Shown one piece after another: positions 6,001-28,800 of a DNA stretch of 64,000 bases. Position 1 is the first letter of the stretch. Every line of letters begins with the position of its first letter. Source of the DNA: Eledone cirrhosa (taxonomy: Eukaryota); NCBI GenBank assembly GCA_964016885.1, contig OZ024742.1:371318001-371382000 (forward strand), in the 5' to 3' direction. A model generated the notes under the pieces. The model made no database searches, was not told where the DNA came from, and worked only from the letters and a program-made list of their open reading frames with translations. The position numbers and the translations under genes are program-made.

Positions 6001-9000
6001 GTGGTGAATGTAGAGGTTATGTTACATGGTAGTGAATGTAGAGGTTATGTTACATGGCTGGTGAATGTAGAGGTTATGTTACATGGTAGTGAGACATGGG
6101 TGGTGAATGTAGAGGTTATGTTATATGGTAGTGAGACATGGGTGGTGAATGTAGAGGTTATGTTACATGGTAGTGACACATGGGTAGTGAATGTAGAGGT
6201 TATGTTACATGGTAGTGAGACATGGGTGGTGAATGTAGAGGTTATGTTACATGGTAGTGAATGTAGAGGTTATGTTACATGGCTGGTGAATGTAGAGGTT
6301 ATGTTACATGGTAGTGAGACATGGGTGGTGAATGTAGAGGTTATGTTATATGGTAGTGAGACATGGCTGGTGAATGTAGAGGTTATGTTACATGGTAGTG
6401 ACACATGGCTAGTGAATGTAGAGGTTATGTTACATGGTAGTGAATGTAGAGGTTATGTTACATGGGTGGTGAATGTAAAGGTTATGTTACATGGTATTGA
6501 GATACGGGTGGTGAATGTAGAGGTTATGTTACATGGTAGTGTGACATAGGTGGTGAATGTAGAGGTTATGTTACATGGTAGTGTGACATAGGTGGTGAAT
6601 GTAGAGGTTATGTTACAAGGTAGTGAGACATGGGTGGTGAATGCAGAGGTTATGTTACATGGTAGTGAGACATGGACAGTGAATGTAGAGGTTATGTTAC
6701 ATGGGTAGTGAATGTAGAGGTTGTTACATGGGTGGTGAATGTAGAGGTTATGTTACATGGTAATGAGACATCGGTAGTGAATGTAGAGGTTATGTTACAT
6801 GGGTGGTGAATGTAGAGGTTATGTTACATGGGTAGTGAATGTAGAGGTTATGTTACATGGTAATGAGACATGGGTATAGAATGTAGGTTATGTTACATGG
6901 TAGTGAGACATGGGTGGTGAATGTAGAGGTTATGTTACATGGGTGGTGAATGTAGAGGTTATGTTACATGGTAGTGAGATATGGGTGGTGAATGTAGAGG
7001 TTATGTTATATGGTAGTGAGACATGGGTAGTGAATGTAGAGGTTATGTTACATCGTAGTGAGACATGGGAGGTGAATGTAGAGGTTATGTTATATGGTAG
7101 TGAGACATGGGTAGTGAATGTAGAGGTTATGTTACATGGTAGTGAGACATGGGTGGTGAATGTAGAGGTTATGTTACATGGTAATGAGACATGGGTAGTG
7201 AATGTAGAGGTTATGTTACATGGTAGTGAGACATGGGTGGTGAATGTAGAGGTTATGTTACATGGTAGTGAGACATGGGTGGTGAATGTAAAGGTTATGT
7301 TACATGGTAGTGAGACATGGGTGGTGAATGTAGAGGTTATGTTACATGGCTGGTGAATGTAGAGGTTATGTTACATGGTAGTGACACATGTGTGGTGAAT
7401 GTAGAGGTTATGTTACATGGGTGGTGAATGTAGAGGTTATGTTACATGGTAGTGAGACATGGGTGGTGAATGTAGAGGTTATGTTACATGGCTGGTGAAT
7501 GTAGAGGTTATGTTACATGGTAGTGACACATGTGTGGTGAATGTAGAGGTTATGTTACATGGGTGGTGAATGTAGAGGTTATGTTACATGGTAGTGAGAC
7601 ATGGGTGGTGAATGTAGAGGTTATGTTACATGGTAGTGACACATGGGTAGTGAATGTAGAGGTTATGTTACATGGGTGGTGAATGTAGAGGTTATGTTAC
7701 ATGGTAATGAGACATGGGTAGTGAATGTAGAGGTTATGTTACATGGTAGTGAATGTAGACGTTATGTTACATGGTAGTGAGACATGGCTGGTGAATGTAG
7801 AGGTTATGTTACATGGTAGTGACACATGTGTGGTGAATGTAGAGGTTATGTTACATGGTAGTGAGACATGGGTGGTGAATGTAGAGGTTATGTTACATGG
7901 TAGTGAGACATGGGTGGTGAATGTAAAGGTTATGTTACATGGTAGTGAGACATGGGTGGTGAATGTAGAGGTTATGTTACATGGCTGGTGAATGTAGAGG
8001 TTATGTTACATGGTAGTGAGACATGGGTGGTGAATGTAGAGGTTATGTTACATGGTAGTGAGACATGGGTAGCGAATGTAGAGTTTATGTTACAAGGTAG
8101 TGAGACATGGGTAGTGAATGTAGAGGTTATGTTACATGGTAGTGAAATCTGGGTGGTGAATGTAGAGGTTATGTTACATGCTAATGAGACATGGACACTG
8201 AATGTAGAGGTTATGTTACATTGTAGTGAGACATGGGTAGTGAATGTAGAGGTTATGTTACATGGTAGTGAATGTAGAGGTTATGTTACATGCTAATGAG
8301 ACATGGACACTGAATGTAGAGGTTATGTTACATGGTAGTGAGATATGGGTGGTGAATGTAGAGGTTATGTTACATGGTAGTGTGACATAGGTGGTGAATG
8401 TAGAGGTTATGTTACATGGTAGTGTGACATAGGTGGTGAATGTAGAGGTTATGTTACAAGGTAGTGAGACATGGGTGGTGAATGCAGAGGTTATGTTACA
8501 TGGTAGTGAATGTAGAGGTTATGTTACATGGGTAGTGAATGTAGAGGTTGTTACATGGGTGGTGAATGTAGAGGTTATGTTACATGGTAATGAGACATCG
8601 GTAGTGAATGTAGAGGTTATGTTACATGGGTGGTGAATGTAGAGGTTATGTTACATGGTAGTGAATGTAGAGGTTATGTTACATGGTAATGAGACATGGG
8701 TATAGAATGTAGAGGTTATGTTACATGGTAGTGAGACATGGGTGGTGAATGTAGAGGTTATGTTACATGGGTGGTGAATGTAGAGGTTATGTTACATGGT
8801 AGTGAGATATGGGTGGTGAATGTAGAGGTTATGTTATATGGTAGTGAGACATGGGTAGTGAATGTAGAGGTTATGTTACATGGTAGTGAGACATGGGAGG
8901 TGAATGTAGAGGTTATGTTATATGGTAGTGAGACATGGGTAGTGAATGTAGAGGTTATGTTACATGGTAGTGAGACATGGGTGGTGAATGTAGAGGTTAT

Positions 9001-12000
9001 GTTACATGGTAATGAGACATGGGTAGTGAATGTAGAGGTTATGTTACATGGTAGTGAGACATGGGTGGTGAATGTAGAGGTTATGTTACATGGTAGTGAG
9101 ACATGGGTGGTGAATGTAAAGGTTATGTTACATGGTAGTGAGACATGGGTGGTGAATGTAGAGGTTATGTTACATGGCTGGTGAATGTAGAGGTTATGTT
9201 ACATGGTAGTGACACATGTGTGGTGAATGTAGAGGTTATGTTACATGGTAGTGAGACATGGGTGGTGAATGTAGATGTTATGTTACATGGTAGTGAGACA
9301 TGGGTGGTGAATGTAAAGGTTATGTTACATGGTAGTGAGACATGGGTGGTGAATGTAGAGGTTATGTTACATGGCTGGTGAATGTAGAGGTTATGTTACA
9401 TGGTAGTGAGACATGGGTGGTGAATGTAGAGGTTATGTTACATGGTAGTGAGACATGGGTAGCGAATGTAGAGTTTATGTTACAAGGTAGTGAGACATGG
9501 GTAGTGAATGTAGAGGTTATGTTACATGGTAGTGAAATCTGGGTGGTGAATGTAGAGGTTATGTTACATGCTAATGAGACATGGACACTGAATGTAGAGG
9601 TTATGTTACATTGTAGTGAGACATGGGTAGTGAATGTAGAGGTTATGTTACATGGTAGTGAATGTAGAGGTTATGTTACATGGTAGTGAGACATGGGTGG
9701 TGAATGTAGAGGTTATGTTACATGGTAGTGAGACATGGGTGGTGAATGTAGAGGTTATGTTACATGGTAATGAGACATGGGTAGTGAATGTAGAGGTTAA
9801 GTTACATGGTAGTGAGACATGGGTGGTGTATGTACGTTATGTTACATGGTAGTGAGACATGGACAGTGAATGTAGAGGTTATGTTACATGGTAGTGAGAC
9901 ATGGGTGGTGAATGTAGAGGTTATGTTACATGGTAGTGAGACATGGGTAGTGAATGTAGAGGTTATGATACATCGTAGTGAGACATGGGTCGTGAATGTA
10001 GAGGTTATGTTACAAGGTAGTGAGACATGCGTAGTGAATGTAGAGGTTATGTTACATGGTAATGAGACATGGGTAGTGAATGTAGAGGTTGTGTTACATG
10101 GTAGTGAGACGTGGGTAGTGAACGTAAAGGTTATGTTACATGGTAGTGAGGCATGGGTAGTGAATGTAGAGGTTATGTTACATGGTAGTGAGACATGGGT
10201 AGTGAATGTAGAGGTTATGTTATATGGTAGTGAATGTAGAGGTTATGTTACATGGTAGTGAGACATGGGTAGTGAATGTAGAGTTTATGTTACAAGGTAG
10301 TGAGACATGGGTAGTGAATGTAGAGGTTATGTTACATGGTAGTGAAATCTGGGTGGTGAATGTAGAGGTTATGTTACATGCTAATGAGACATGGACAGTG
10401 AATGTAGAGGTTATGTTACATGGACAATGAATGTAGAGGTTATGTTACATTGTAGTGAGACATGGGTAGTGAATGTAGAGGTTATGTTACATGGTAGTGA
10501 GACATGGGTGGTGAATATAGAGGTTATGTTACATGGTAGTGAATGTAGAGTTTATGTTACATGGTAATGAGACATGGGTGGTGAATGTAGAGGTTATGTT
10601 ACATGGTAATGAGACATGGGTAGTGAATGTAGAGGTTGTGTTACATGGTAGTGAGACATGGGTAGTGAACGTAGAGGTTATGTTACATGGTAGTGAGGCA
10701 TGGGTAGTGAATTTAGAGGTTATGTTACATGGTAGTGACACATGGGTAGTGAATGTAGAGGTTATGTTATATGGTAGTGAGACATGGGTAGTGAATGTAG
10801 AGGTTATGTTACATGGTAGTGAAATCTGGGTGGTGAATATAGAGGTTATGTTACATGCTAATGAGACATGGACAGTGAATGTAGAGGTTATGTTACATTG
10901 TAGTGAGACATGGGTAGTGAATGTAGAGGTTATGTTACATGGTAGTGAGACATGGGTAGTGAATGTAGAGGTTATGTTACATGGTAGTGAATGTAGAGGT
11001 TATGTTACATGATAGTGAGACATGGGTGGTGAATGTAGAGGTTATGTTACATGGTCGTGAATGTAGAGCTTATGTTACATGCTAATGAGACATGGACAGT
11101 GAATGTAGAGGTTATGTTACATGGACAGTGAATGTAGAGGTTATGTTACATTGTAGTGAGACATGGGTAGTGAATGTAGAGGTTATGTTACATGGTAGTG
11201 AATGTAGAGGTTATGTTACATGGTAGTGAGACATGGGTAGTGAATGTAGAGGTTATGTTACATGGTAGTGAGACATGGGTTGTGAATGTAGAGGTTATGT
11301 TACATGGTAGTGAATGTAGAGGTTATGTTACATGGTAGTGAGACATGGGTAGCGAATGTAGAGATTATGTTACAAGGTAGTGAGACATGGGGGGTGAATG
11401 TATAGGTTATGTTACATGGTAGCGAGACATGGGTGGTGAATGTAGAGTTTCTGTTTCATGGTAATGAGACATGGGTAGTGAATGTAGAGGTTGTTACATG
11501 GGTAGTGAATGTAGAGGTTATGTTACATGGGTAGTGAATGTAGAGGTTATGTTACATGGTAGTGAATGTAGAGGTTATGTTACATGGTAGTGAATGTAGA
11601 GGTTATGTTACATGGTAGTGAATGTAGAGGTTATGTTACATGGTAGTGAATGTAGAGGTTATGTTACATGGTAGTGAATGTAGAGATTATGTTACAAAGT
11701 AGTGAGACATATGTGATGGATGTAGAGGTTATGTTACATGGTAATGAGACATGGGTGGTGAATGTAGAGTTTCTGTTACATGGTAATGAGACATGGGTAG
11801 TGAATGTAGAGTTTCTGTTACATGGTAATGAGACATGGGTAGTGAATGTAGAGGTTATGTTTCATGGTAGTGAGACGTGGGTAGTGAATGTAGAGGTTAT
11901 GTTATATGGTAGTGAGACATGGGTAGTGAATGTAGGGGTTATGTTACATGGTAGTGAATGTAGAGGTTATGTTACATGGTAGTGAGACATGGGTGGTGAA

Positions 12001-14984
12001 TGTAGAGGTTATGTTACATGGTAGTGAGACATGGGTGGTGAATGTAGAGATTATGTTACATGGTAGTGAGACATGGACAGGGAATGTAGAGGTTAAGTTA
12101 CATGGTAGTGAGATATGCGTGGTGAATGTAGAGGTTGTTACATGGTAGTGAGACATGGGTATTGAACGTAGAGGTTATGTTACATGGTAGTGAGACATGG
12201 GTGTTGAATGTAGAGGTTATGTTACATGGTAGTGAGACATGGGTAGTGAATGTAGAGGTTATGTTACATGGTAGTGAGACATGGGGAATGAATGTAGATG
12301 TTATGTTACATGGTAGGGAATGTAGAGGTTATGTTACATGGTAATGAGACATGGGAGTGAATGTAGAGGTTATGTTACAAGGTAGTGAATGTAGAGATTA
12401 TGTTACATGGTAGTGAAATCTGGGTGGTGAATGTAGAGGTTATGTTACATGCTAATGAGACATGGACAGTGAATGTAGAGCTTATGTTACATGGTAATGA
12501 GACATGGGTTGTGAATGTAGAGGTTAAGTTAGATGGTAGTGAAACATGGGTGGTGAATGTAGAGGTTATGTTACATGGTAGTGAGACATGGACAGTGAAT
12601 GTAGAGGTTATGGTACATGGTAGTGAGACATGGGTGGTGAATGTAGAGCTTATGTTACATGGGTAGTGAATGTAAAGGTTATGTTACATGGGTAGTGAAT
12701 GTAGAGGTTATGTTACATGGTAGTGAGACATGGACAGTGAATGTAGAGGTTATGTTACATGGGTAGTGAATGTAGAGGTTATGTTACATGGGTAGTGAAT
12801 GTAGAGGTTATGTTACATGGGTAGTGAATGTAGAGGTTATGTTACATGGGTGGTGAATGTAGAGGTTATGTTACATGGTAGTGAGCCATGGGTAGTGAAT
12901 GTAGAGGTTATGTTACATGGTAGGGAGACATGGGTGGTGAATGTAGAGGTTATGTTACAAGGTAGTGAAACATGGAGTGAATGTAGATGTTATGTTACAT
13001 GGTAGGGAGACATGGGTGGTGAATGTAGAGGTTATGTTACATGGTAGTGAGACATGGGGAGTGAATGTAGAGGTTATGTTACAAGGTAGTGAGACATGGG
13101 TAGTGAATGTAGAGGTTATGTTACATGGTAGTGAAATCTGGGTGGTGAATGTAGAGGTTATGTTACATGCTAATGAGACATGGACAGTGAATGTAGAGGT
13201 TATGTTACATGGTAATGAGACATGGACAGTGAATGTAGAGGTTATGTTACATGGTAGTGAGACATGGGTGGTGATTGTAGAGGTTATGTTACATGGTAGT
13301 GAATGTAGAGGTTATGTTACATGGTAGTGAGACATGGGTGGTGAATGTAGAGGTTAAGTTAGATGGTAGTGAGACATGGGTGGTGAATGGAGAGGTTATG
13401 TTACATGGTAGTGAGACATGGGTAGTGAATGTAGAGGTTATGTTACATGGGTGGTGAATGTAGAGGTTATGTTACATGGTAGTGAATGTAGAGGTTATGT
13501 TACATAGTAATGAGACATGGGTGGTGAATGTAGAGTTTGTTTCGTGGTAATGAGACATGGGTAGTGAATGTAGAGGTTATGTTACATGGTAGTGAGACAT
13601 GGGCAGTGAATGTAGAGGTTATGTTACATGGTAGGGAGACATGGGTCGTGAATGTAAAGGTAATGTTACAAGCTAGTGAGACATGGGTAGTGAATGTAGA
13701 TGTTATGTTACATGGTAGGGAGACATGGGTGGTGAATGTAGAGGTTATGTTACATCGTAGTGAGACATGGGGAGTGAACGTAGAGGTTATGTTACAAGGT
13801 AGTGAGACATGGGGGGTGAATGTAGAGGTTATGTTACAAGGTAGTGAGACATGGGTAGTGAATGTAGAGGTTATGTTACATGGTAGTGAATCATGGGGAG
13901 TGAATGTAGAGGTTATGTTACATGGTAGTGAGACATGGGGGGTGAATGTAGAGGTTATGTTACAAGGTAGTGAGACATGGGTAGTGAATGTAGAGGTTAT
14001 GTTACATGGTAGTGAGACATGGGGAGTGAATGTAGAGGTTATGTTACATGCTAATGAGACATGGACAGTGAATGTAGAGGTTGTTACATGCTAATGAGAC
14101 ATGGACAGTGAATGTAGAGGTTATGTTACATTGTAGTGAGACATGGGTAGTGAATGTAGATGTTATGTTACATGGTAGTGAGACATGGGTAGTGAATGTA
14201 GATGTTATGTTACATGGTAGTGAGACATGGGTAGTGAATGTAGAGGTTATGTTACATGGTAGTGAGACATGGGTGGTGAATGTATAGTTTATGTTACATG
14301 GTAGTGAATGTAGAGGTTGTGTTACATGGACAGTGAATGTAGAGGTTATGTTACATGGTAGTGAGACATGGGTAGTGAATGTAGAGGTTATGTTACATGG
14401 TAGTGAGACATGGGTACTGAATGTAGAGGTTATGTTACATGGTAGTGAATGTTTGAGGTTGTTACATTGTAGTGAGACATGGACAGTGAATGTAGAGGTT
14501 ATGTTACATGGTAGTGAGACATGGACAGTGAATGTAGAGGTTGTTACATGGTAGTGAATGTAGAGGTTGTTACATGGTAGTGAATGTAGAGGTTATGTTA
14601 CATGGTAGTAACACATGGGTGGTGAATGTAGAGGTTATGTTACATGGTAGTGAGACATGGACAGTGAATGTAGAGGTTATGTTACATGGTAGTGAGACAT
14701 GGGTAGTGAATGTAGAGGTTATGTTACATGGTAGTGAGGCATGGGTGGTGAATGTAGAGGTTATGTTACATGGTAGTGAATGTAGAGCTTATGTTACATG
14801 GTAGTGAGACATGGGTAGTGACTGTAGAGGTTATGTTACATGGTAGTGAGACATGGGTAGTGAATGTAGAGGTTATGTTACATGGTAGTGAATGTAGAGG
14901 TCATGTTACATGGTAGTGAGACATGGGTGGTGAATGTAGAGGTTATGTTACATGGTAGTGAGACATGGACAGTGAATGTAGAGG
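1..14984 (+). repeat. Satellite A: tandem array of a 42-bp unit (GTAGTGAGACATGGGTRGTGAATGTAGAGGTTATGTTACATG) mixed with 28/29-bp deletion variants; continues off the left edge; intronic
   Basis: The unit is readable throughout and ORFs show a 14-aa period (GSETWVVNVEVMLH). The array ends at ...GTAGAGG|ATGTGTGAC (14984). Roughly 350-400 units, estimated from length. Confidence 0.98.
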
Positions 14985-15351: not shown

Positions 15352-15397
15352 ATTTGCCGTGTTTTATTGTTAATCTTTCTTTCTTTTTGTTTTGCAG

Positions 15398-15529
15398 GCC
15401 CTATCACAGAAGACCCTGGAAATGTTAATGGGGGTAGATCTATCTAAACAAAGCAACAATAATTTACCCACAGACATGCCAATGGTAACGTTTGCTTACA
15501 TCAAACATATGTGGCTCTGTAATCAAAAG
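15398..15529 (+). CDS. MTOR: mTOR (serine/threonine-protein kinase TOR) internal coding exon, FAT domain; 132 bp, phase 0/0
   Basis: Polypyrimidine tract plus TTTGCAG acceptor and AAG|GTAAGT donor. Encodes ALSQKTLEMLMGVDLSKQSNNNLPTDMPMVTFAYIKHMWLCNQK, which aligns without gaps to human mTOR ALAHKTLVLLLGVDPSRQLDHPLPTVHPQVTYAYMKNMWKSARK (recalled from memory). Confidence 0.93.
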
Positions 15530-15670
15530 GTAAGTCTACTACAGTTCTCATGAAATACACTGAGTTTCAATTAGTTAACTCAGAATGTCCTGTACCCCAT
15601 TAGCAAGACATTTTTGTATAAAATTAACAGAAAATATGCCCTTTAGGTGGTATTTCGGCTACTTTGCTCC

Positions 15671-15880
15671 ATAATGATGATAATGGTTTCTGATTTAGGC
15701 ACAAGACCCGCAATTTTGGAGGTGGGGAAAATTATTAAATCAACCCCAGTATATGACTGCTACTTTTGGCACAAGGCCAGCAATTAGCCCAGTGCATTAC
15801 TGGTGCTTTATTTTATCGACCTTGAAAGGATGAAAGGCAAAACTAACCTCAGCGGGATTTGAACTCAGAATGTAAAGGGC
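15671..15880 (-). mobile_element. tRNA-derived SINE remnant with Nin/Deu-domain-like core
   Basis: The minus strand reads CTTTACATTCTGAGTTCAAATCCCGCTGAGG (B box GAGTTCAAATCC), then TTTGCCTTTCATCCTTTCAAGGTCGATAAAATAAAGCACCAG (Nin/Deu-like core). A (CAT/TAT)-type tail lies at 15671-15685. Confidence 0.7.
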
Positions 15881-16030
15881 TGGCAATAATACTTCTCAGA
15901 ATTAAATTATGACATAACTAATGACATGTAATAAAGTTAGTATTAACATCAACACACCATTTGAATTAACTCATTTTCAGATATTTTCTACTAAATTATT
16001 GTAGGATGTTAAGAGTTAACAAACCCATTT

Positions 16031-16257
16031 TTAACCCTTTAGCATTTAAACTAACCGTATCTGGCTAGAATTCTCTCACCTTTTTCTGTTCAAACTGGAC
16101 ATAACTGGCTGCTCATAGTGATGTTAAGGTATTGTTCTCAAAATAAATAACATCAAAATCTCAGATTCGATACTATGTGAGATAATTATGTAAGATAAAG
16201 TGTTTACCACCAAAATACAATAGTATATATAGAGTAATGTAAATGCTAAAGGGTTAA
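16031..16257. mobile_element. piggyBac-family MITE (219 bp, 16035-16253) flanked by TTAA target duplications
   Basis: TTAA|CCCTTTAGCATTTA ... TAAATGCTAAAGGG|TTAA: a 14-bp perfect TIR with TTAA TSDs and no ORF. Confidence 0.9.
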
Positions 16258-16360
16258 ACATTTTCTGCTAAATCATTACTTCATGTTAAGAGTTAAAGAT
16301 CTCTCATAATGTCATCAGTGTCAAGATACAATAAAAATTATTTTTTCTTCAATAAAACAG

Positions 16361-16476
16361 CAAGACAGTTTTTTAGCCTTGCAACAATTTATTCATCAAA
16401 CCCTGCGACAAAGTGAAGTCTTGTCATCCACTGGAGATGCAGCTGCCCTCACAGAACTTCGTAAGCTGTTAGCCAG
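16361..16476 (+). CDS. MTOR: mTOR internal coding exon, FAT domain; 116 bp, phase 0/2
   Basis: TTTTTTCTTCAATAAAACAG acceptor and CAG|GTAAGG donor. Encodes QDSFLALQQFIHQTLRQSEVLSSTGDAAALTELRKLLA(R), same length as human IDAFQHMQHFVQTMQQQAQHAIATEDQQHKQELHKLMAR and in frame with both neighbouring exons. Confidence 0.88.
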
Positions 16477-16597
16477 GTAAGGTCAGCTTTCTGAATTTTT
16501 TTGTAGTGTGGAACTCATGTAGCTCATTACTGGAAAACACACTTGCTTAAGGTATTTTAAGGTATTATTATTTTAATCACTTAGATTTGAGGGGAAA

Positions 16598-16712
16598 GCA
16601 TGTAGCCTAGTGGTTAGGGTGTTGGGCCTTTGATCATAAAGATCATTGGTTTGTTTGCCTAGAATGGACAGCACATTGTGTTCTTGAGCAAGGGGCTTCA
16701 TTATGCATTGCT
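16598..16712 (+). mobile_element. Degenerate tRNA-headed SINE (CORE-like); may extend to ~16820
   Basis: A-box-like TAGCCTAGTGGTTAGGG head, a degenerate B box, then TTGTGTTCTTGAGCAAGGGGCTTCATT resembling the CORE motif TGTGxCCTTGGGCAAGxCACTT. Confidence 0.55.
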
Positions 16713-16848
16713 TTTCATGATAGGAAGTTTCTTTGGTGTTTTAATAATGCACCCAGTCCTATGAGATGCAACCCTGGAGGAGACGAGCTAAACCTGCAAA
16801 AGTATGAACATTTGATTAGAGGCAGTTTTGAGCAGGTTATTTAAAGGA

Positions 16849-18325
16849 TTAACCCTTTAGCATTCAAAGCGACAAAAACCGACAAGATTATGTCCCCTTT
16901 CATTTATTCAAACCGACAAAAACCGACATTTAATACCACACGGAGATTTCCTTCTAAAAATAAACATTGACATCATCGAAATCTCGTCAATTCGAGATTA
17001 CTGCGAGATAAAGCCCTTACGTGCGAAAATTAACTCTTAGTATAGTTAAAGAACTTGCGATAACACGTGTTTTTAACGTTGAAAGTGTAACATGGCTTCC
17101 GAAAGTAGCGACAACGAATTTGAAGGTTTTACGTCCGACGACATTCGAGATCAAAAAGAAACAGAAGATAATATCAGTGATTTATCTTCAAACGAATCAG
17201 ATATATTTATTTCTGATATATCTGATAATGATGATAGTTACTTTGAAAGTGAAAGAGAAGATTTGACTGACACCATTGAAAAAATAGCAACGTGGTTGAA
17301 AGAAACAACATCGATACATGTTTCGGATTTTACTGAAAATATTGGACCACAACACACATTACCACCCGATGCTAAAGCACTGGATTATTATTTTTTATTT
17401 TTACCACAATCTTTCTTCGAAGTTGTGGCAAATCGCTATGCACAACAACAAATTTCTAATATCGGAAAACCTGATCTGTTATGTTGTTCGACAGATTCTG
17501 CCGATATGAAAGCGTTTTTTACCATAAATATTATGTTTGGTATTAAACAATTTCCACGACTGTGGAATTATTGTAGTACTGATATAAGGTTTGGTGACCC
17601 TTATATATCTAGTATTATGGCAAAAACGAGATTCATTAAATTAAACCAGTATTTGCATCTGGTTGATACTTCAAATGCCCCTGGTAGAAATGAATCAAAT
17701 TACGACCCACTGTACAAAGTACGACCATTAATTGAAATATTGTCAGAAAAATTTAAAAGTGTGTATAAACTTATATATTGGGAACTTTCTATTACGTAAT
17801 TTTACACCGTACATTTACAGAGTACATTGCCAATATTATTTTGACCGGTGAAAAGGTTTTATACATTTTTTTCAATGAAAATATTTGCCTGAAATGTAGA
17901 GAAAGACTAAAACCTTGTACTGATTACACCTGCATTTTTAATTAATTCACCTGTTCAGAAAACTGCTAGAATTGATGGAAATCAGCATCTAGGTCATTAT
18001 TGGATTTTTTTGCAACAAATCTAACAGATAAGGCAGATAAAGTTTAAATTTTTGTGTTTATCCATAAAGTTATTACTTTTACACCTGTTAATTAATTTCA
18101 CCTGCCCATAAAAGTCAAATTTAACAAAAAAAATCAGGTAAAAATATATAATTGTAAATTATAGTTATTTAAACATCTACTGACAAAATTTCAAGTCTGC
18201 ACATATAAAATTAAAGTAATTACAAACAAATAAAATTGATAACCCTCTTGAGTATAATTAAGTGAAAATAATGCGAATAGATGAACATGACATTTGACAA
18301 TTCAATGTGAATGCTAAAGGGTTAA
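16849..18325 (+). mobile_element. Non-autonomous, internally deleted piggyBac transposon (16853-18321, 1469 bp) with TTAA TSDs
   Basis: TTAA|CCCTTTAGCATTCA ... TGAATGCTAAAGGG|TTAA (14-bp perfect TIR). A 23-bp subterminal direct repeat ATTCAAA(G/C)CGACAAAAACCGACA occurs at 16862 and 16906, and a transposase ORF lies inside. Confidence 0.92.
17092..17799 (+). pseudogene. Truncated piggyBac transposase (PGBD-like, N-terminal 235 aa); catalytic DDD core absent
   Basis: Acidic D/E/S-rich N-terminus, then piggyBac hallmarks LDYYFLFL..., MKAFFTINIMFGI...P.L.NY.S.D...I..IM.K.RF..L..YLHL.D, DPLYKVRPLIE.LSEKF..VY. Similarity ends just before the expected IDE catalytic motif. Confidence 0.88.
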
Positions 18326-18330
18326 AGCGT

Positions 18331-18420
18331 GACTCATTTCATTCATTAGACTACAGCCTTTACAGGGGTTTAGTCAATCATATCAACCTCCCTAAGTTTG
18401 GTACAAATTTTATATCTTTT
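18331..18420 (-). mobile_element. Possible highly degenerate SINE fragment
   Basis: TTTAGTCAATCATATCAACCTCC...TGGTACAAATTTTAT loosely resembles ATCAACCCCAGT...CTGGTGCTTTATTTTAT in the 15671-15880 SINE. Confidence 0.3.
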
Positions 18421-18589
18421 TTTAAACCTTTAAATTCAGAGCTACTGCACTGCAGCATTTCAGAGTTACAGAGCGGCAACATTTTGATGTGTGTGGTACT
18501 AATACAATGACTGCACAGCTCTACTGCCTAAAGGGAACATTACAGGGGGAAGAATCTGCAACCATATGGTTGTGACATTTCATTGTAAA

Positions 18590-18870
18590 CATCATCATCA
18601 TCATCATCATCATCATCACTGTTTTACGTCCGTTCTTCCACGCTAGCATGGGTTAGACGGGTTATCCTGTTGTGGGCAGTGTCTGGTCGGCTGACCATGC
18701 CTTGTTCATACAGGAACTGATTTGGCTTGATTTCTACAGCTGGATGCCCTTCCTAACACCAACCTCATTTACAGTGAGTGCTGGGTGCTTTTTCGTGGCG
18801 CCTACACGTCCACTATACAGTGTGGGCTGGGTGCTTTTTTGCCGTGGCACCTCCACGACCACCTTGCAGT
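18590..18870 (-). mobile_element. RTE-tailed non-autonomous retroelement (SINE or deleted LINE), antisense, with (CAT)9 tail
   Basis: (CAT)9 at 18590-18616. The adjacent minus-strand AACCCATGCTAGCGTGGAAGAACGGACGTAAAACAGTGATGATG resembles the RTE tail at 15295-15338 (AACTTACACAAATGTGGAAAAGCAGATTTAAAGTATTGATGATG). Internal GGTTGGTGTTAGGAAGGGCATCCAGCTGTAGAAA motif. Confidence 0.7.
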
Positions 18871-19025
18871 GGGGGGTGTGGGGGCATATTGTCTATATGC
18901 TTCAGCTTGTACCCATGGGAGGTCGGGTACTCTGTATTACTGCGTGACGCCAGAGGTCACGGTCTTGTCAAACAATTTTTTCTTATTAATTATTCTTAAT
19001 TATTTTTACTGTGGAAATTTTCCAG

Positions 19026-19143
19026 ATGCTACTTAAAACAAGGAGATTGGTTATTGGAATTAAACGGTATTGATGACAACTCAATTGCAAAAGCTTTAGA
19101 GAGTTTTAAAATGGCTCAGGACAGAAACAAGAATTGGTATAAA
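19026..19143 (+). CDS. MTOR: mTOR internal coding exon, FAT domain; 118 bp, phase 2/0
   Basis: TTTTCCAG acceptor and AAA|GTAAGT donor. Encodes (R)CYLKQGDWLLELNGIDDNSIAKALESFKMAQDRNKNWYK versus human RCFLKLGEWQLNLQGINESTIPKVLQYYSAATEHDRSWYK, and completes the split Arg codon AG|A from the previous exon. Confidence 0.93.
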
Positions 19144-19577
19144 GTAAGTGATCCATGATGGTTTTAAACGTATTTTATTTTCATTTATTTATGTTTGTAT
19201 ATGAAGTTAGTAGGAAGGAACCATCTTAATTTTATAAAATGTTTGTGAGTAGAGTAAAGAATGATTGATATCTATGACGTTTAGGTTTGCATAATAAGAC
19301 TCATAAACTATAGTTATACGTGTTTTAAGGCCTTTTACCCTGGCAATGCAGGGGTTAGTTTTGCAGGCCCCCATGACAGACTTCATATTCATCATGGGGT
19401 CCTTTTAAAGGCAATGTTTTCCAGCCTGATGCCCTCTTTGGTTTCAACCCTTTTTGTCACCACTCATGGCACAAGGTTATGGTGTACCTATTCTAAACTT
19501 GATACACAATGCTATATACTGTAGTTGTGTCTATATTAAATAATGATTTTCTAATATATATATTATTTTACTTCATT

Positions 19578-19800
19578 TTTGGCAGAGGTTTTCTGGCTGG
19601 ATTCCTTTCCTAATCACCAGTCATTTTATAGAATAGACAGAATGCTTTTTATGAGACTAGAGATGTTGTCTGCCAACACTGAAGAGTCCTCTTGACCTTG
19701 TGTCTTTTTTTATTCAGTGTGACTTTCTTAGATGGGTTGCTTTCACTACAACATGCAAAGCCCATGTCTTCCTCATGCAGTCTTATTTATTTGGAATTTA
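19578..19800 (-). mobile_element. Diverged fragment of the same RTE-related element as 18590-18870, directly abutting satellite B
   Basis: TTTGGCAGAGGTTTTCTGGCTGGATTCCTTTCCTAATCACCAGTCATTTTATAG (19578) aligns with TTTGGCTTGATTTCTACAGCTGGATGCCCTTCCTAACACCAACCTCATTTACAG (18721). How far the homology extends past ~19650 is uncertain. Confidence 0.55.
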
Positions 19801-22800
19801 CTGTTCTCCTAGACACCTTACCTTCTCCACAACAGTTAACTGCTCTCCTAGACACCCTACCTTCTCCACAACAGTTAACTGCTCTCCTAAACACTCTACC
19901 TTCTCCACAACAGTTAACTGCTCTCCTAGACACCCTACCTTCTCCACAGTAAAGTTAACTGCTCTCCTAGACACCCTACCTTTTCTACAGCAAAGTTAAC
20001 TGCTCTCCTAGACACCCTACCTTCTCCACAGTAAAGTTAACTGCTCTCCTAGACACCCTACCTTCTCCACTACAAAGTTAACTGCTCTCCTAGACACTTG
20101 ACCTTCTCCACAACAAAGTTTACTGCTCTCCTAGACACCCTACCTTATCCACAACAAAGTTAACTGCTCTCCTAGACACCCTACCTTCTCCACAACAAAA
20201 TTAACTGCTCTCCTAGACACCCTACCTTCTCCACAACAAAATTAACTGCTCTCCTAGACACCCTACCTTCTCCACAGTAAAGTTAACTGCTCTCCTAGAC
20301 ACCCTACCTTCTCCACAACAGTTAACTGCTCTCCTAGACACCCTACCTTCTCCACAACAAAGTTAACTGCCCTCCTAGACACCCTACCCTCTCCACAACA
20401 GTTAACTGCTCTCCTAGACACCCTACCTTCTCCACAACAAAGTTAACTTCCCTCCTAGACACCCTACCCTCTCCACAACAGTTAACTGCTCTCCTAGACA
20501 CCCTACCTTCTCCACAACAAAGTTAACTGCTCTCCTAGACACCCTACCTTCTCCACTACAAAGTTAACTGCTCTCCTAGACACCCTACCTTTCTCCACAG
20601 TAAAGTTAACTGCTCTCCTAGACACCCTACCTTCTCCACAACAGTTAACTGCTCTCCTAGACACCCTACCTTCTCCACAACAGTTAACTGCTCGCCTAGA
20701 CACCCTGCCTTCTCCACTACAAAGTTAACTGCTCTCCTAGACACCCTACCTTCTCCACAGTAAAGTTAAATGCTCTCCTAGACACCCTACCTTCTCCACA
20801 GTAAAGTTAACTGCTCTCCTAGACACCCTACCTTCTCCACAGTAAAGTTAACTGCTCTCCTAGACACCCTACCTTCTCCACAGTAAAGTTAACTGCTCTC
20901 CTAGACACCAGACCTTCTCCACAACAAAGTTTACTGCTCTCCTGGACACCCTACCTTATCCACAACAAAGTTAACTGCTCTCCTAGACACCCGACCTTCT
21001 CCACAACAGTTAACTGCTCTCCTAGACACCCTACCTTCTCCACAACAAAGTTAACTGCTCTCCTACACACCCTACCTTCTCCACTACAAAGTTAACTGCT
21101 CTCCTAGACACCCTACCTTCTCCACTACAAAGTTAACTGCTCTCCTAGACACCCTACCTTCTCCACAGTAAAGTTAACTGCTCTCCTAGACACCCTACCT
21201 TTTCCACAGCAAAGTTAACTGCTCTCCTAGACACCCTACCTTCTCCACAGTAAAGTTAACTGCTCTCCTAGACACCCTACCTTCTCCACACTAAAGTTAA
21301 CTGCTCTCCTAGACACCCTACCTTCTCCACAACAGTTAACTGCTCTCCTAGACACCCTACCTTCTCCACAACAAAGTTAACTGCTCTCCTAGACACCCTA
21401 CCTTTTCCACAGTAAAGTTAACTGCTCTCCTAGACACCCTACCTTCTCCACTACAAAGTTAACTGCTCTCCTAGACACTTGACCTTCTCCACTACAAAGT
21501 TAACTGCTCTCCTAGACACTTGACCTTCTCCACTACAAAGTTAACTGCTCTCCTAGACACCAGACCTTCTCCACAACAAAGTTTACTGCTCTCCTAGACA
21601 CCCTACCTTATCCACAACAAAGTTAACTGCTCTCCTAGACACTTGATCTTCTCCACTACAAAGTTAACTGCTCTCCTAGACACCCTACTTTCTCCACAAC
21701 AGTTAACTGCTCTCCTAGACACCCTACCTTCTCCACAACAGTTAACTGCTCTCCTAGACACCCTACCTTCTCCACAACAGTTAACTGCTCGCCTAGACAC
21801 CCTGCCTTCTCCACTACAAAGTTAACTGCTCTCCTAGACACCCTACCTTCTCCACAGTAAAGTTAAATGCTCTCCTAGACACCCGACCTTCTCCACAGTA
21901 AAGTTAACTGCTCTCCTAGACACCCTACCTTCTCCACAACAAAGTTAACTGCTCTCATAGACACTTGACCTTCTCCACTACAAAGTTAACTGCTCTCCTA
22001 GACACTTGACCTTCTCTACTACAAAGTTAACTACTCTCCTAGACACTCTACCTTCTCCACAACAGTTAACTGCTCTCCTAGACACCCTACCTTCTCCACT
22101 GTAAAGTTAACTGCTCTCCTAGACACCCAACCTTCACAACAAAGTTAACTGCTCTCCTAGACACCCTACTTTCTCCACAACAGTTAACTGCTCTCCTAGA
22201 CACCCTACCTTCTCCACAACAGTTAACTGCTCTCCTAGACACCCTACCTTCTCCACAACAGTTAACTGCTCGCCTAGACACCCTGCCTTCTCCACTACAA
22301 AGTTAACTGCTCTCCTAGACACCCTACCTTCTCCACAGTAAAGTTAAATGCTCTCCTAGACACCCGACCTTCTCCACAGTAAAGTTAACTGCTCTCCTAG
22401 ACACCCTACCTTCTCCACAGTAAAGTTAACTGCTCTCCTAGACACCCTACCTTCTCCACAGTAAAGTTAACTGCTCTCCTAGACACCAGACCTTCTCCAC
22501 AACAAAGTTTACTGCTCTCCTAGACACCCTACCTTATCCACAACAAAGTTAACTGCTCTCCTAGACACCCGACCTTCTCCACAACAAAGTTAACTGCTCT
22601 CCTAGACACCCTACCTTCTCTACAACAAAGTTAACTGCTCTCCTACACACCCTACCTTCTCCACTACAAAGTTAACTGCTCTCCTAGACACCCTACCTTC
22701 TCCACTACAAAGTTAACTGCTCTCCTAGACACCCTACCTTCTCCACAGTAAAGTTAACTGCTCTCCTAGACACCCTACCTTTTCCACAGCAAAGTTAACT

Positions 22801-25800
22801 GCTCTCCTAGACACCCTACCTTCTCCACAGTAAAGTTAACTGCTCTCCTAGACACCCTACCTTCTCCACACTAAAGTTAACTGCTCTCCTAGACACCCTA
22901 CCTTCTCCACAACAGTTAACTGCTCTCCTAGACACCCTACCTTCTCCACAACAAAGTTAACTGCTCTCCTAGACACCCTACCTTTTCCACAGTAAAGTTA
23001 ACTGCTCTCCTAGACACCCTACCTTCTCCACTACAAAGTTAACTGCTCTCCTAGACACTTGACCTTCTCCACTACAAAGTTAACTGCTCTCCTAGACACT
23101 TGACCTTCTCCACTACAAAGTTAACTGCTCTCCTAGACACTTGACCTTCTCCACTACAAAGTTAACTGCTCTCCTAGACACCAGACCTTCTCCACAACAA
23201 AGTTTACTGCTCTCCTAGACACCCTACCTTATCCACAACAAAGTTAACTGCTCTCCTAGACACTTGATCTTCTCCACTACAAAGTTAACTGCTCTCCTAC
23301 ACACCCTACTTTCTCCACAACAGTTAACTGCTCTCCTAGACACCCTACCTTCTCCACAACAGTTAACTGCTCTCCTAGACACCCTACCTTCTCCACAACA
23401 GTTAACTGCTCGCCTAGACACCCTGCCTTCTCCACTACAAAGTTAAATGCTCTCCTAGACACCCGACCTTCTCCACAGTAAAGTTAACTGCTCTCCTAGA
23501 CACCCTACCTTCTCCACAGTAAAGTTAACTGCTCTCCTAGACACTTGACCTTCTCCACTACAAAGTTAACTGCTCTCCTAGACACTTGACCTTCTCCACT
23601 ACAAAGTTAACTGCTCTCCTAGACACCAGACCTTCTCCACAACAAAGTTAACTGCTCTCCTAGACACCCTACCTTCTCCACAACAAAGTTAACTGCTCTC
23701 CTAGACACCCTACCTTCTCCACAGTAAAGTTAAATGCTCTCCTAGACACCCGACCTTCTCCACAGTAAAGTTAACTGCTCTCCTAGACACCCTACCTTCT
23801 CCACATTAAAGTTAACTGCTCTCCTAGACACCCTACCTTCTCCACAGTAAAGTTAACTGCTCTCCTAGACACCAGACCTTCTCCACTACAAAGTTAACTG
23901 CTCTCCTAGACACCCTACCTTCTCCACAACAGTTAACTGCTCTCCTTGACACCCTACCTTCTCCACAACAGTTAACTGCTCTCCTAGACACCCTACCTTC
24001 TCCACTGTAAAGTTAACTGCTCTCCTAGACACCCAACCTTCACAACAAAGTTAACTGCTCTCCTAGACACCCTACTTTCTCCACAACAGTTAACTGCTCT
24101 CCTAGACACCCTACCTTCTCCACAACAGTTAACTGCTCTCCTAGACACCCTACCTTCTCCACAACAGTTAACTGCTCGCCTAGACACCCTGCCTTCTCCA
24201 CTACAAAGTTAACTGCTCTCCTAGACACCCTACCTTCTCCACAGTAAAGTTAACTGCTCTCCTAGACACCCTACCTTCTCCACAGTAAAGTTAACTGCTC
24301 TCCTAGACACCAGACCTTCTCCACAACAAAGTTTACTGCTCTCCTAGACACCCTACCTTATCCACAACAAAGTTAACTGCTCTCCTAGACACCCGACCTT
24401 CTCCACAACAAAGTTAACTGCTCTCCTAGACACCCTACCTTCTCCACAACAAAGTTAACTGCTCTCCTACACACCCTACCTTCTCCACTACAAAGTTAAC
24501 TGCTCTCCTAGACACCCTACCTTCTCCACTACAAAGTTAACTGCTCTCCTAGACACTCTACCTTCTCCACAGTAAAGTTAACTGCTCTCCTAGACACCCT
24601 ACCTTTTCCACAGCAAAGTTAACTGCTCTCCTAGACACCCTACCTTCTCCACAGTAAAGTTAACTGCTCTCCTAGACACCCTACCTTCTCCACACTAAAG
24701 TTAACTGCTCTCCTAGACACCCTACCTTCTCCACAACAGTTAACTGCTCTCCTAGACACCCTACCTTCTCCACAACAAAGTTAACTGCTCTCCTAGACAC
24801 CCTACCTTTTCCACAGTAAAGTTAACTGCTCTCCTAGACACCCTACCTTCTCCACTACAAAGTTAACTGCTCTCCTAGACACTTGACCTTCTCCACTACA
24901 AAGTTAACTGCTCTCCTAGACACTTGACCTTCTCCACTACAAAGTTAACTGCTCTCCTAGACACCAGACCTTCTCCACAACAAACTTTACTGCTCTCCTA
25001 GACACCCTACCTTATCCACAACAAAGTTAACTGCTCTCCTAGACACTTGATCTTCTCCACTACAAAGTTAACTGCTCTCCTAGACACCCTACCTTTCTCC
25101 ACAGTAAAGTTAACTGCTCTCCTAGACACCCTACCTTCTCCACAACAAAGTTAACTGCTCTCCTAGACACCCTACCTTTTCCACAGTAAAGTTAACTGCT
25201 CTCCTAGACACCCTACCTTCTCCTCTACAAAGTTAACTGCTCTCCTAGACACTTGACCTTCTCCACTACAAAGTTAACTGCTCTCCTAGACACTTGACCT
25301 TCTCCACTACAAAGTTAACTGCTCTCCTAGACACCAGACCTTCTCCACAACAAAGTTTACTGCTCTCCTAGACACCCTACCTTCTCCACAGTAAAGTTAA
25401 CTGCTCTCCTAGACACCAGACCTTCTCCACTACAAAGTTAACTGCTCTCCTAGACACCCTACCTTTCTCCACAGTAAAGTTAACTGCTCTCCTAGACACC
25501 CTACCTTCTCCACAACAGTTAACTGCTCTCCTAGACACCCTACCTTCTCCACAACAGTTAACTGCTCTCCTAGACACCCTACCTTCTCCACAACAGTTAA
25601 CTGCTCTCCTAGACACCCTACCTTCTCCACAACAGTTAACTGCTCTCCTAGACACCCTACCTTCTCCACAACAGTTAACTGCTCTCCTAGACACCCTACC
25701 TTCTCCACAACAGTTAACTGCTCTCCTAGACACCCTACCTTCTCCACAACAGTTAACTGCTCTCCTAGACACCCTACCTTCTCCACAACAGTTAACTGCT

Positions 25801-28800
25801 CTCCTAGACACCCTACCTTCTCCACAACCGTTAACTGCTCTCCTAGACACCCTACCTTCTCCACAACAAAGTTAGCTGCTATCCTAGACACCCTACCTTC
25901 ACCACAGTAAAGTTAACTGCTCTCCTAGACACCCTACCTTCTCCACAGTAAGGTTAACTGCTCTCCGAGACACCCTACCTTCTCCACAACAAAGTTAACT
26001 GCTCTCCTAGACACCCTACCTTCTCCACAACAAAGTTAACTGCTCTCCTAGACACCCTACCTTCTCCACAACAGTTAACTGCTCTCCTAGACACCCTACC
26101 TTCTCCACAACAAAGTTAACTGCTCTCCTAGACACCCTACCTTCTCCACAGTAAAGTTAACTGCTCTCCTAGACACCCTACCTTCTCCACAGTAAAGTTA
26201 ACTGCTCTCCTAGACACCAGACCTTCTCCACAACAAAGTTTACTGCTCTCCTAGACACCCTACCTTATCCACAACAAAGTTAACTGCTCTCCTAGACACC
26301 CGACCTTCTCCACAACAAAGTTAACTGCTCTCCTAGACACCCTACCTTCTCCACAACAAAGTTAACTGCTCTCCTACACACCCTACCTTCTCCACTACAA
26401 AGTTAACTGCTCTCCTAGACACCCTACCTTCTCCACTACAAAGTTAACTGCTCTCCTAGACACCCTACCTTCTCCACAGTAAAGTTAACTGCTCTCCTAG
26501 ACACCCTACCTTTTCCACAGCAAAGTTAACTGCTCTCCTAGACACCCTACCTTCTCCACAGTAAAGTTAACTGCTCTCCTAGACACCCTACCTTCTCCAC
26601 ACTAAAGTTAACTGCTCTCCTAGACACCCTACCTTCTCCACAACAGTTAACTGCTCTCCTAGACACCCTACCTTCTCCACAACAAAGTTAACTGCTCTCC
26701 TAGACACCCTACCTTTTCCACAGTAAAGTTAACTGCTCTCCTAGACACCCTACCTTCTCCACTACAAAGTTAACTGCTCTCCTAGACACTTGACCTTCTC
26801 CACTACAAAGTTAACTGCTCTCCTAGACACTTGACCTTCTCCACTACAAAGTTAACTGCTCTCCTAGACACCAGACCTTCTCCACAACAAAGTTTACTGC
26901 TCTCCTAGACACCCTACCTTATCCACAACAAAGTTAACTGCTCTCCTAGACACTTGATCTTCTCCACTACAAAGTTAACTGCTCTCCTAGACACCCTACT
27001 TTCTCCACAACAGTTAACTGCTCTCCTAGACACCCTACCTTCTCCACAACAGTTAACTGCTCTCCTAGACACCCTACCTTCTCCACAACAGTTAACTGCT
27101 CGCCTAGACACCCTGCCTTCTCCACTACAAAGTTAACTGCTCTCCTAGACACCCTACCTTCTCCACAGTAAAGTTAAATGCTCTCCTAGACACCCGACCT
27201 TCTCCACAGTAAAGTTAACTGCTCTCCTAGACACCCTACCTTCTCCACAACAAAGTTAACTGCTCTCCTAGACACTTGACCTTCTCCACTACAAAGTTAA
27301 CTGCTCTCCTAGACACTTGACCTTCTCTATTACAAAGTTAACTACTCTCCTAGACACTCTACCTTCTCCACAACAGTTAACTGCTCTCCTAGACACCCTA
27401 CCTTCTCCACTGTAAAGTTAACTGCTCTCCTAGACACCCAACCTTCACAACAAAGTTAACTGCTCTCCTAGACACCCTACTTTCTCCACAACAGTTAACT
27501 GCTCTCCTAGACACCCTACCTTCTCCACAACAGTTAACTGCTCTCCTAGACACCCTACCTTCTCCACAACAGTTAACTGCTCGCCTAGACACCCTGCCTT
27601 CTCCACTACAAATTTAACTGCTCTCCTAGACACCCTACCTTCTCCACAGTAAAGTTAAATGCTCTCCTAGACACCCGACCTTCTCCACAGTAAAGTTAAC
27701 TGCTCTCCTAGACACCCTACCTTCTCCACAGTAAAGTTAACTGCTCTCCTAGACACCCTACCTTCTCCACAGTAAAGTTAACTGCTCTCCTAGACACCAG
27801 ACCTTCTCCACAACAAAGTTTACTGCTCTCCTAGACACCCTACCTTATCCACAACAAAGTTAACTGCTCTCCTAGACACCCGACCTTCTCCACAACAAAG
27901 TTAACTGCTCTCCTAGACACCCTACCTTCTCCACAACAAAGTTAACTGCTCTCCTACACACCCTACCTTCTCCACTACAAAGTTAACTGCTCTCCTAGAC
28001 ACCCTACCTTCTCCACTACAAAGTTAACTGCTCTCCTAGACACCCTACCTTCTCCACAGTAAAGTTAACTGCTCTCCTAGACACCCTACCTTTTCCACAG
28101 CAAAGTTAACTGCTCTCCTAGACACCCTACCTTCTCCACAGTAAAGTTAACTGCTCTCCTAGACACCCTACCTTCTCCACACTAAAGTTAACTGCTCTCC
28201 TAGACACCCTACCTTCTCCACAACAGTTAACTGCTCTCCTAGACACCCTACCTTCTCCACAACAAAGTTAACTGCTCTCCTAGACACCCTACCTTTTCCA
28301 CAGTAAAGTTAACTGCTCTCCTAGACACCCTACCTTCTCCACTACAAAGTTAACTGCTCTCCTAGACACTTGACCTTCTCCACTACAAAGTTAACTGCTC
28401 TCCTAGACACTTGACCTTCTCCACTACAAAGTTAACTGCTCTCCTAGACACCAGACCTTCTCCACAACAAAGTTTACTGCTCTCCTAGACACCCTACCTT
28501 ATCCAGAACAAAGTTAACTGCTCTCCTAGACACTTGATCTTCTCCACTACAAAGTTAACTGCTCTCCTAGACACCCTACTTTCTCCACAACAGTTAACTG
28601 CTCTCATAGACACCCTACCTTCTCCACAACAGTTAACTGCTCTCCTAGACACCCTACCTTCTCCACAACAGTTAACTGCTCGCCTAGACACCCTGCCTTC
28701 TCCACTACAAAGTTAACTGCTCTCCTAGACACCCTACCTTCTCCACAGTAAAGTTAAATGCTCTCCTAGACACCCTACCTTCTCCACAACAGTTAACTGC

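Follow-up and report, generated by a model that had tools for sequence, protein, structure and literature searches.

We found that a 64-kb stretch of Eledone cirrhosa DNA, C3:371318001-371382000 of a 3.0-Gb genome assembly, contains three exons which very probably lie inside the FAT-domain region of a single, intact TOR gene. This stretch is referred to as the window, and its positions count from 1; scaffold C3 is 378.9 Mb long. On the same reading, the introns of about 1 kb that flank the three exons have each gained one locus-private tandem array, and RNA polymerase II is predicted to read through these arrays, which are then spliced out. TOR is a dosage-sensitive master regulator of growth, and two thirds of the transcription unit of this single-copy gene were found to be fast-evolving satellite DNA. 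The three exons are as follows.

15398..15529, + strand: TOR exon 1, 132 bp, phase 0, 44 codons (ALSQKTLEML...CNQK), equivalent to human mTOR 1667-1707 and FAT profile 166-200
16361..16476, + strand: TOR exon 2, 116 bp, 38 codons and 2 bases, human mTOR 1711-1749 by position
19026..19143, + strand: TOR exon 3, 118 bp, 1 base and 39 codons (CYLKQGDW...NWYK), equivalent to human mTOR 1750-1788 and FAT profile 244-284

Each of the three exons is preceded by a pyrimidine tract with AG and followed by GTAAG; in particular, exon 1 is bordered by ttttgcag and gtaagt, and exon 3 by ttttccag and gtaagt. When spliced, they give 122 stop-free codons in one frame only, the other two frames being full of stops, and these codons are collinear with residues 1667-1788 of human mTOR in the FAT domain. 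The first-pass annotation, which was made from the letters of the window, had placed three exons here with canonical splice sites and an in-frame join, and the AG and GT borders and the 122 stop-free codons agree with it. It had also remarked that the exons were missing from the list of open reading frames, which holds, as each open frame is shorter than 60 residues and falls below the default threshold.

The identity of the exons as TOR was likewise upheld. In a comparison with the PDB, exon 1 alone matched human mTOR 1667-1707 with E values of 7e-9 for truncated chains and 5e-8 for the full-length protein, and exon 3 alone matched human mTOR 1750-1788 with E values of 2e-5 to 5e-5. mTOR was the sole protein matched by exons 1 and 3 at those levels, and both exons were assigned to FAT by Pfam. 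Exon 2 on its own had no match in the PDB or Pfam. Its length exactly fills the gap of residues 1711-1749, and in a low-stringency search confined to that intron it aligned with residues 1676-1717 of a TOR representative, P0022, with 36% identity. Exon 2 encodes a fast-evolving linker of the FAT domain.

If the 64-kb window is viewed by itself, the three exons look isolated. Together with the lack of a match for exon 2 on its own, this would suit a nonfunctional duplicated fragment or pseudogene left behind in satellite DNA, with the working TOR gene elsewhere. We consider this explanation extremely unlikely, as a complete and collinear gene was found around the exons. The 384 kb around the window contain no N. 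A tblastn search of this region with P0022 (2471 residues, found via exon 1; Pfam order mTOR_dom, FAT, FRB, PI3_PI4_kinase, FATC) returned 50 pieces, every one on the + strand and in the order of the query, from residue 10 at C3:371150017 to residue 2470 at 371439504. Four further exons came from a targeted search at low stringency and brought the gene to at least 54 exon pieces covering 2389 of the 2471 residues. The TOR gene thus spans at least 289 kb (289,488 bp) on the + strand of C3, 7.5 Mb from the scaffold end. Six stops were present inside the tblastn pieces, all of them where the alignment overruns an exon border into an intron.

The domain assignments followed the same order. A genome-wide Pfam search for FAT placed two additional FAT exons 8-9.5 kb upstream of the window, and single exons in genomic order matched FAT at 78-115, 116-164, 166-200 (exon 1) and 244-284 (exon 3). 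Between the FAT and kinase domains sits the FRB exon (C3:371400887-371401072; PF08771 FRB_dom, 93.4 bits, E 1e-26). The FRB domain is specific to TOR among the phosphatidylinositol 3-kinase-related kinases (PIKKs). Four exons of the kinase domain matched PF00454 at 2-38, 39-83, 147-199 and 200-240, and the last large exon matched PF02260, FATC. From the N-terminal HEAT-repeat region and mTOR_dom through FATC, the gene was found to be full length without disabling mutations, save for residues 1-9 and the final few codons. The DNA of exon 1 and the protein sequence of the FRB exon had one match each in the whole genome. From the collinear, full domain set and these single matches, it follows that this is the one TOR gene of the organism and that the three exons are internal to it. 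The first-pass annotation had named an orphan duplicated fragment as one case that would overturn its view; the flanking exons were found on C3, on the same strand and in order.

The exons themselves also speak against a dead copy. No disabling stop is present within them, and a long contig from sequencing run X4 agrees with exon 1 without a mismatch. The listed differences that separate organism A from organism B are mostly synonymous; exon 1 has at least two, both synonymous, and exon 2 at least nine, comprising five synonymous differences and four replacements in three codons. On our reading of the sequences, and among the differences listed, this appears to be the pattern of coding exons under constraint.

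At the 3' end of the gene, the FATC-coding part (C3:371439199-371439504) is split by an intron of about 100 bp, and its frame departs from the conserved ...YIGW ending. Therefore, a last micro-exon for the final codons, which was not located, must lie further downstream. An intronless second TOR copy was also considered and rejected, as the candidate, a frame of 2695 residues on C26, had no similarity to the 122-residue peptide and was ATR by Pfam. This single uninterrupted frame (C26:9661397-9669481, - strand) contains N-HEAT_ATR, UME, M-HEAT_ATR, FAT, HEAT_ATR, PI3_PI4_kinase and FATC, and PF25030 has no other match in the genome. Unlike its relative TOR with at least 54 exon pieces, ATR seems to exist here as one intronless gene resembling a retrogene.

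The two satellite arrays that flank the exons were delimited with Tandem Repeats Finder (TRF), as follows.

1..14984, + strand: Satellite A, the last 15 kb of the array C3:371310668-371332984 (22,317 bp)
19800..64000, + strand: Satellite B, the first 44 kb of the array C3:371337800-371393530 (55,731 bp, 1375 copies, 92% matches)

The unit of Satellite A is about 42 bp long, with sub-periods of 28/29, 70, 84 and 126, and is G+T-rich and nearly free of C on the sense strand, with a GC skew of +0.73 to +0.75. Satellite B has a unit of 41 bp, of which 1090 copies lie within the window, and is C-rich and G-poor on the sense strand; its GC skew of -0.62 is extreme and opposite in sign to that of Satellite A. 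Satellite A makes up 95% of the 23,387-bp intron before exon 1, and Satellite B makes up 98% of the 56,777-bp intron after exon 3. The exons beyond the two arrays were both located. The previous exon, ...YASLCRKSGRL followed by gtaagt, ends at C3:371310010, and the next exon, preceded by ...catcag, starts at C3:371393921 with AWHALALTYYEAV (AWHALA). The first-pass annotation had expected the former to end near KSGRL more than 15.3 kb upstream and the latter to start near AWHAWA more than 44.8 kb downstream, and they lie 23.4 kb upstream and 56.8 kb downstream, respectively. Its estimate of at least 59 kb of satellite in the two flanking introns compares with a measured 78 kb, and the two arrays stand where it had described them.

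Satellites A and B are each private to their own intron at the stringency of exact motifs. A 30-base motif of Satellite A had 137 exact matches genome-wide, all 137 of them inside array A, and for a 34-base motif of Satellite B all 93 exact matches were inside array B. Both arrays are also built of long repeated blocks: 68% of the 100-mers of Satellite A have exact copies, for the most part about 7.05 kb away, and so do 90% of those of Satellite B, at lags of 7,584, 5,836 and 8,475 bp.

The arrangement extends across the gene. Arrays of at least 500 bp are present in nine of the 53 TOR introns; there are ten such arrays with unrelated units of 26 to 48 bp, and together they occupy 189,452 of the 289,488 bp of the gene, or 65%. 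The arrays are as follows.

0.9 kb: array with a 26-bp unit
3.2 and 64.2 kb: two arrays with a 48-bp unit, both in one intron of 71.2 kb, the largest of the gene
25.4 kb: array with a second 42-bp unit, unrelated to that of array A
3.4 kb: array with a 32-bp unit
2.3 kb: array with a 30-bp unit
22.3 kb: array A
55.7 kb: array B
2.3 kb: array with a 43-bp unit, in an intron that splits the kinase domain and also holds the 27-bp array
9.7 kb: array with a 27-bp unit, in the same intron as the 43-bp array

The share of array was 93-98% in six of these introns and 75% and 19% in two more. With their arrays subtracted, the array-bearing introns measure 165-3,861 bp, and the array-free introns have a median of 1,104 bp. 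Because the remainder is close to the ordinary median, a giant intron can be described as an ordinary intron plus one array, or two arrays in the case of two introns.

Five arrays exceed 9 kb in length; in these, 68-90% of the 100-mers recur exactly, with commonest lags of 3.5-10.7 kb. These exact blocks of several kilobases form a higher-order structure far above the unit of 41-48 bp. The commonest block lags were the following.

C3:371177389-371241545: 10,714 bp
C3:371252680-371278106: 8,680 bp
C3:371310668-371332984 (array A): 7,054 bp
C3:371337800-371393530 (array B): 7,584 bp

Exact recurrence over several kilobases is the pattern expected of recent block duplication by unequal exchange, and it also calls for some care with the lengths given by the assembly. 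The lengths or the placement of the arrays might be an artefact of assembly, in that arrays were collapsed, inflated or misjoined and the true introns are far shorter or otherwise arranged. Arrays with so much exact recurrence at these lags are difficult for assemblers, the lengths come from a single assembly, and the short-read contigs end at the array edges. We nevertheless regard this explanation as very unlikely. The 384 kb are free of gaps as well as of N, and on both sides of every array the exons follow in perfectly collinear order. A short-read contig of run X1, which is independent of the long assembly, covers 18939-19848 without a difference and runs from exon 3 through the opening 49 bases of array B. 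Similarly, a contig of X5, from a related organism with introns about 90% alike, covers 18980-19821 and reaches 22 bases into the start of array B. Additionally, as the motifs of A and B are confined to this locus, there is no other locus that could have supplied the arrays by misjoining. Summed contig depths at the array edges (X1, X4, X5 and X6) were tried as an estimate of copy number or transcription and dropped, as these depths are not copy numbers.

The surroundings of the gene were surveyed with TRF on samples of 10 kb, in which arrays of at least 500 bp with a period of at least 10 were counted. The regions gave the following values.

C3, interior, steps of 18 Mb: 20 samples, 16.4% array, arrays in 6 of 20
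C2, interior, steps of 20 Mb: 20 samples, 6.9% array, arrays in 4 of 20
C2, 200 kb around another FAT-domain gene: continuous, 1.2% array
C3, last 20 Mb: 20 samples, 50.3% array, arrays in 15 of 20
C3, first 10.5 Mb: 10 samples, 55% array, arrays in 7 of 10
C2, first 8.5 Mb: 5 samples, 24% array, arrays in 2 of 5
C2, last 9 Mb: 5 samples, 32% array, arrays in 4 of 5

Over 10 samples between 369.5 and 378.5 Mb of C3, 79.9% of the sequence was array, and eight of the 10 samples were at or above 87%. The unit was different in every sampled array and ranged from 17 to 90 bp. Arrays of the minisatellite type, diverse and private, dominate the distal chromosome domain in which TOR lies. The share of arrays in TOR (65%) is, if anything, below that of its surroundings (about 80%); it is the region that is special and not TOR. 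The first-pass annotation is to be corrected in this respect: the array layout is particular neither to mTOR nor to two introns, as it is found in nine introns and in a chromosome-end domain of about 10 Mb. Its observation is confirmed and its interpretation supported, and the regional context makes the case less special. The distal domains of C3 at 369.5-378.9 Mb and 1.5-10.5 Mb consist to 50-80% of arrays of 10 kb or more, and the ends of C2 do so to a lesser degree. The FAT-domain gene on C2 is another PIKK gene, whose FAT-domain exon was found at C2:56212239-56212460 on the - strand (60.6 bits, profile 221-300).

The regional picture also bears on the view that the arrays are functional, whether as timers that delay transcription, as chromatin or insulator elements or as sources of small RNA, and are kept by selection. 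Nine introns of one essential gene carry arrays, and the X5 contig revealed a start resembling that of array B at the same place in a related organism, both of which agree with such a view. A third point in its favor is that motifs for strong donor sites (GTRAGT) and polyadenylation, or poly(A), signals (AWTAAA) are absent from the sense strand of the arrays. The numbers of these hexamers were near zero on both strands alike, though, and a scarcity that is equal on both strands fits chance. The surrounding 10 Mb are richer in arrays than the gene itself. The array units are all unrelated, no Rfam family was found in the window, and the arrays contain no long open frame, with no stop-free frame above 271 residues. 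Furthermore, the exact blocks of several kilobases point to recent turnover and not to conservation. Taking these points together, we judge selection for a function of the arrays to be very unlikely, and we saw no evidence that would suggest the arrays to be more than tolerated passengers. Selection against splice or poly(A) signals within the arrays was considered separately and rejected, as no strand asymmetry beyond chance was found for ten units. Some units do carry weak one-sided signals: array A contains about 300 copies of GTGAG, and the 27-bp array about 350 sites that resemble acceptors.

A contig of run X4 (record 9, 10,487 letters, depth 30.4) may reflect expression of the gene. Its positions 5162-5292 equal window positions 15397-15527 with 0 differences, the match stops within 1-2 bases of both borders of exon 1, and the record runs more than 5 kb further on each side. 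Run X4 came from the same study as the best DNA-like runs. The depth of X4 at the listed places in exon 2 was 30.4, equal to that of exon 1, and the bin with the last 69 bases of exon 3 had a mean depth of 12.7, which is 30.4 x 69/167. As the start of exon 1 corresponds to about residue 1634 of P0022, about 4.9 kb of upstream coding sequence and a short 5' untranslated region fit the 5,161 or 5,195 letters on one side of the X4 record. These features suggest that the X4 contig is a full-length spliced TOR mRNA, in which case the gene would be spliced across its arrays. X4 had no cover at the listed intron places 15537 and 16481-16502, which was not counted as evidence.

We propose that the arrays would arise and grow by unequal exchange of blocks of several kilobases in recombination-prone chromosome ends, so that their growth would be a property of the region and not an adaptation of TOR. 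RNA polymerase II would then read through the arrays, and the spliceosome would remove them as intron, the array units presumably offering no strong donor sites on the sense strand and no poly(A) hexamers. The arrays would thus be tolerated baggage that has roughly tripled the transcription unit. Elongation proceeds at 1.5-4 kb/min; at this rate, transcription of the tripled unit would take about 1.2-3.2 h instead of 0.4-1.1 h.

Several points weigh against the reading of an intact TOR gene that is transcribed through its arrays. The lengths of the arrays rest on one assembly, and identical blocks of several kilobases are easily shortened or lengthened by assemblers. The span given for the gene is a minimum, since its first 9 residues and its final few codons were not found. 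That X4 is RNA is deduced from a single contig, and the junctions 15529>16361 and 16476>19026, as well as both junctions that cross an array, were absent among the 15 of 2,495 joints listed. The missing donor and poly(A) motifs are at chance level for ten units of about 40 bp and are no sign of selection. Finally, the regional figures come from samples of 10 kb, 10 to 20 per region.

To place the locus among known systems, we compared it with other genes that have repeat-filled introns. In Drosophila, essential genes of heterochromatin such as light and rolled have introns filled mainly by transposon fragments near centromeres. TOR resembles them as a vital single-copy gene inside a repeat-dominated chromosome block, with introns swollen by repeats, but the filling of its introns consists of private tandem arrays near a scaffold end.

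The first-pass annotation had drawn a parallel to the Y-loop genes of Drosophila, which holds for the layout and not for the scale. As described in the parts of Fingerhut et al. 2019 (PMC6508621) used here, the Y fertility genes kl-3, kl-5 and ks-1 contain megabase introns of simple 5-bp satellites such as (AATAT)n, which are shared among loci and make up more than 99% of the locus; these genes lie on the heterochromatic Y and are expressed only in spermatocytes under a dedicated program that involves RNA-binding proteins. Going by that material, TOR is similar in that its exons are parted by introns that are almost wholly tandem satellite and in that the satellite share of the locus is very high. 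To judge from the sequence, TOR would also need to be transcribed through its arrays as one unit, as those genes are. In contrast, no megabase introns of satellites of about 5 bp and no satellite share above 99% were found at TOR; its arrays measure 2-64 kb, tens of kilobases against megabases, have complex units of 26-48 bp that are private to one intron and amount to 65% of the locus, and the gene encodes a housekeeping kinase.

The locus is a large-scale case of the known tandem-repeat-laden introns of genes near chromosome ends. In the sections of Linthorst et al. 2020 (PMC7608644) consulted, the human subtelomeric genes PTPRN2, DLGAP2 and ABCA7 carry intronic variable number tandem repeats (VNTRs) or minisatellites with units above 15 bp, which are concentrated in the last megabases of the arms. 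The same sections report that these VNTRs are enriched 7- to 21-fold, GC-rich and a minor part of the DNA, and propose unequal exchange in recombination-rich ends. The present locus agrees with this description, within the limits of those sections, in that tandem repeats are concentrated at chromosome ends and many lie in introns of the genes there: the units are 17-90 bp long, and the array share rises from 7-16% in the chromosome interiors to 24-32% near the ends of C2 and 50-80% near those of C3. It differs in that 50-80% of the distal DNA sampled here is arrays of 10 kb or more, with a GC content of 33-47% and single arrays of up to 64 kb.

Satellite-like repeats near or in genes of euchromatin are also known from Tribolium castaneum and Crassostrea gigas, where the extracts considered (PMC4675708, PMC5844308 and PMC7492417) describe mostly short arrays of dispersed families, those of the oyster lying in Helentron elements. 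With respect to these extracts, the TOR satellites are similar in being gene-associated and outside classical heterochromatin, but the TOR arrays are long, and neither of the test motifs occurs outside its own intron. In the literature searched, which left aside the species' own genome paper, no report was found of TOR or another housekeeping gene with such a layout.

Provided that the assembly is correct, reading through about 190 kb of tandem repeats is compatible with housekeeping expression, which would show that chromosome ends rich in satellites are not necessarily devoid of genes or silenced as heterochromatin. A further reading, which we put forward tentatively and consider possible rather than probable, is that the last 10 Mb or so of C3 form a gene-bearing 'satellite sea', about four fifths of which would be unrelated private arrays numbering in the hundreds. 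This domain would be open enough for TOR to be read through about 190 kb of array in every growing cell, and polymorphism in array length would act as a heritable dial on the timing and output of TOR. If this were true, the locus would test whether tandem repeats alone nucleate heterochromatin or slow RNA polymerase II. With its ten arrays, each of known and private sequence, the gene offers a handy natural system for studies of elongation, co-transcriptional splicing and chromatin over satellites, and of possible length variation among individuals and its effect on expression. For annotation, exons of essential genes can be tens of kilobases apart here and hidden between arrays, and gene finders and repeat masking may miss such exons.

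The remaining parts of the window are the two introns between the three exons.

15530..16360, + strand: ordinary intron, 831 bp, with very high-copy dispersed repeats that are SINE-like (short interspersed element)
16477..19025, + strand: intron with transposon debris, 2,549 bp

Between exons 2 and 3, an open frame of 235 residues (17092-17799, + strand) corresponds to the N-terminal third of a piggyBac-type transposase and matched Pfam DDE_Tnp_1_7 at positions 3-123 of 349 with an E value of 5e-18. As it was covered by contigs of all four runs, this frame belongs to a repeated family. Dispersed short repeats with the look of a SINE are present at 15735-15901, 16069-16402 and 18574-19074, with an enormous summed contig depth in this and two other organisms; the summed depth was extreme over 15735-16402 in all four runs. 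The repeat at 15735-15901 may resemble a SINE of cephalopods. Beyond the gene, we also observed a G-free array of (CACCACCACCACTACAACCAC)-type units with periods of 15, 21, 36 and 57, which begins 13 kb downstream of the last TOR exon at C3:371452701 and extends to at least 371472000, a length of at least 19.3 kb.

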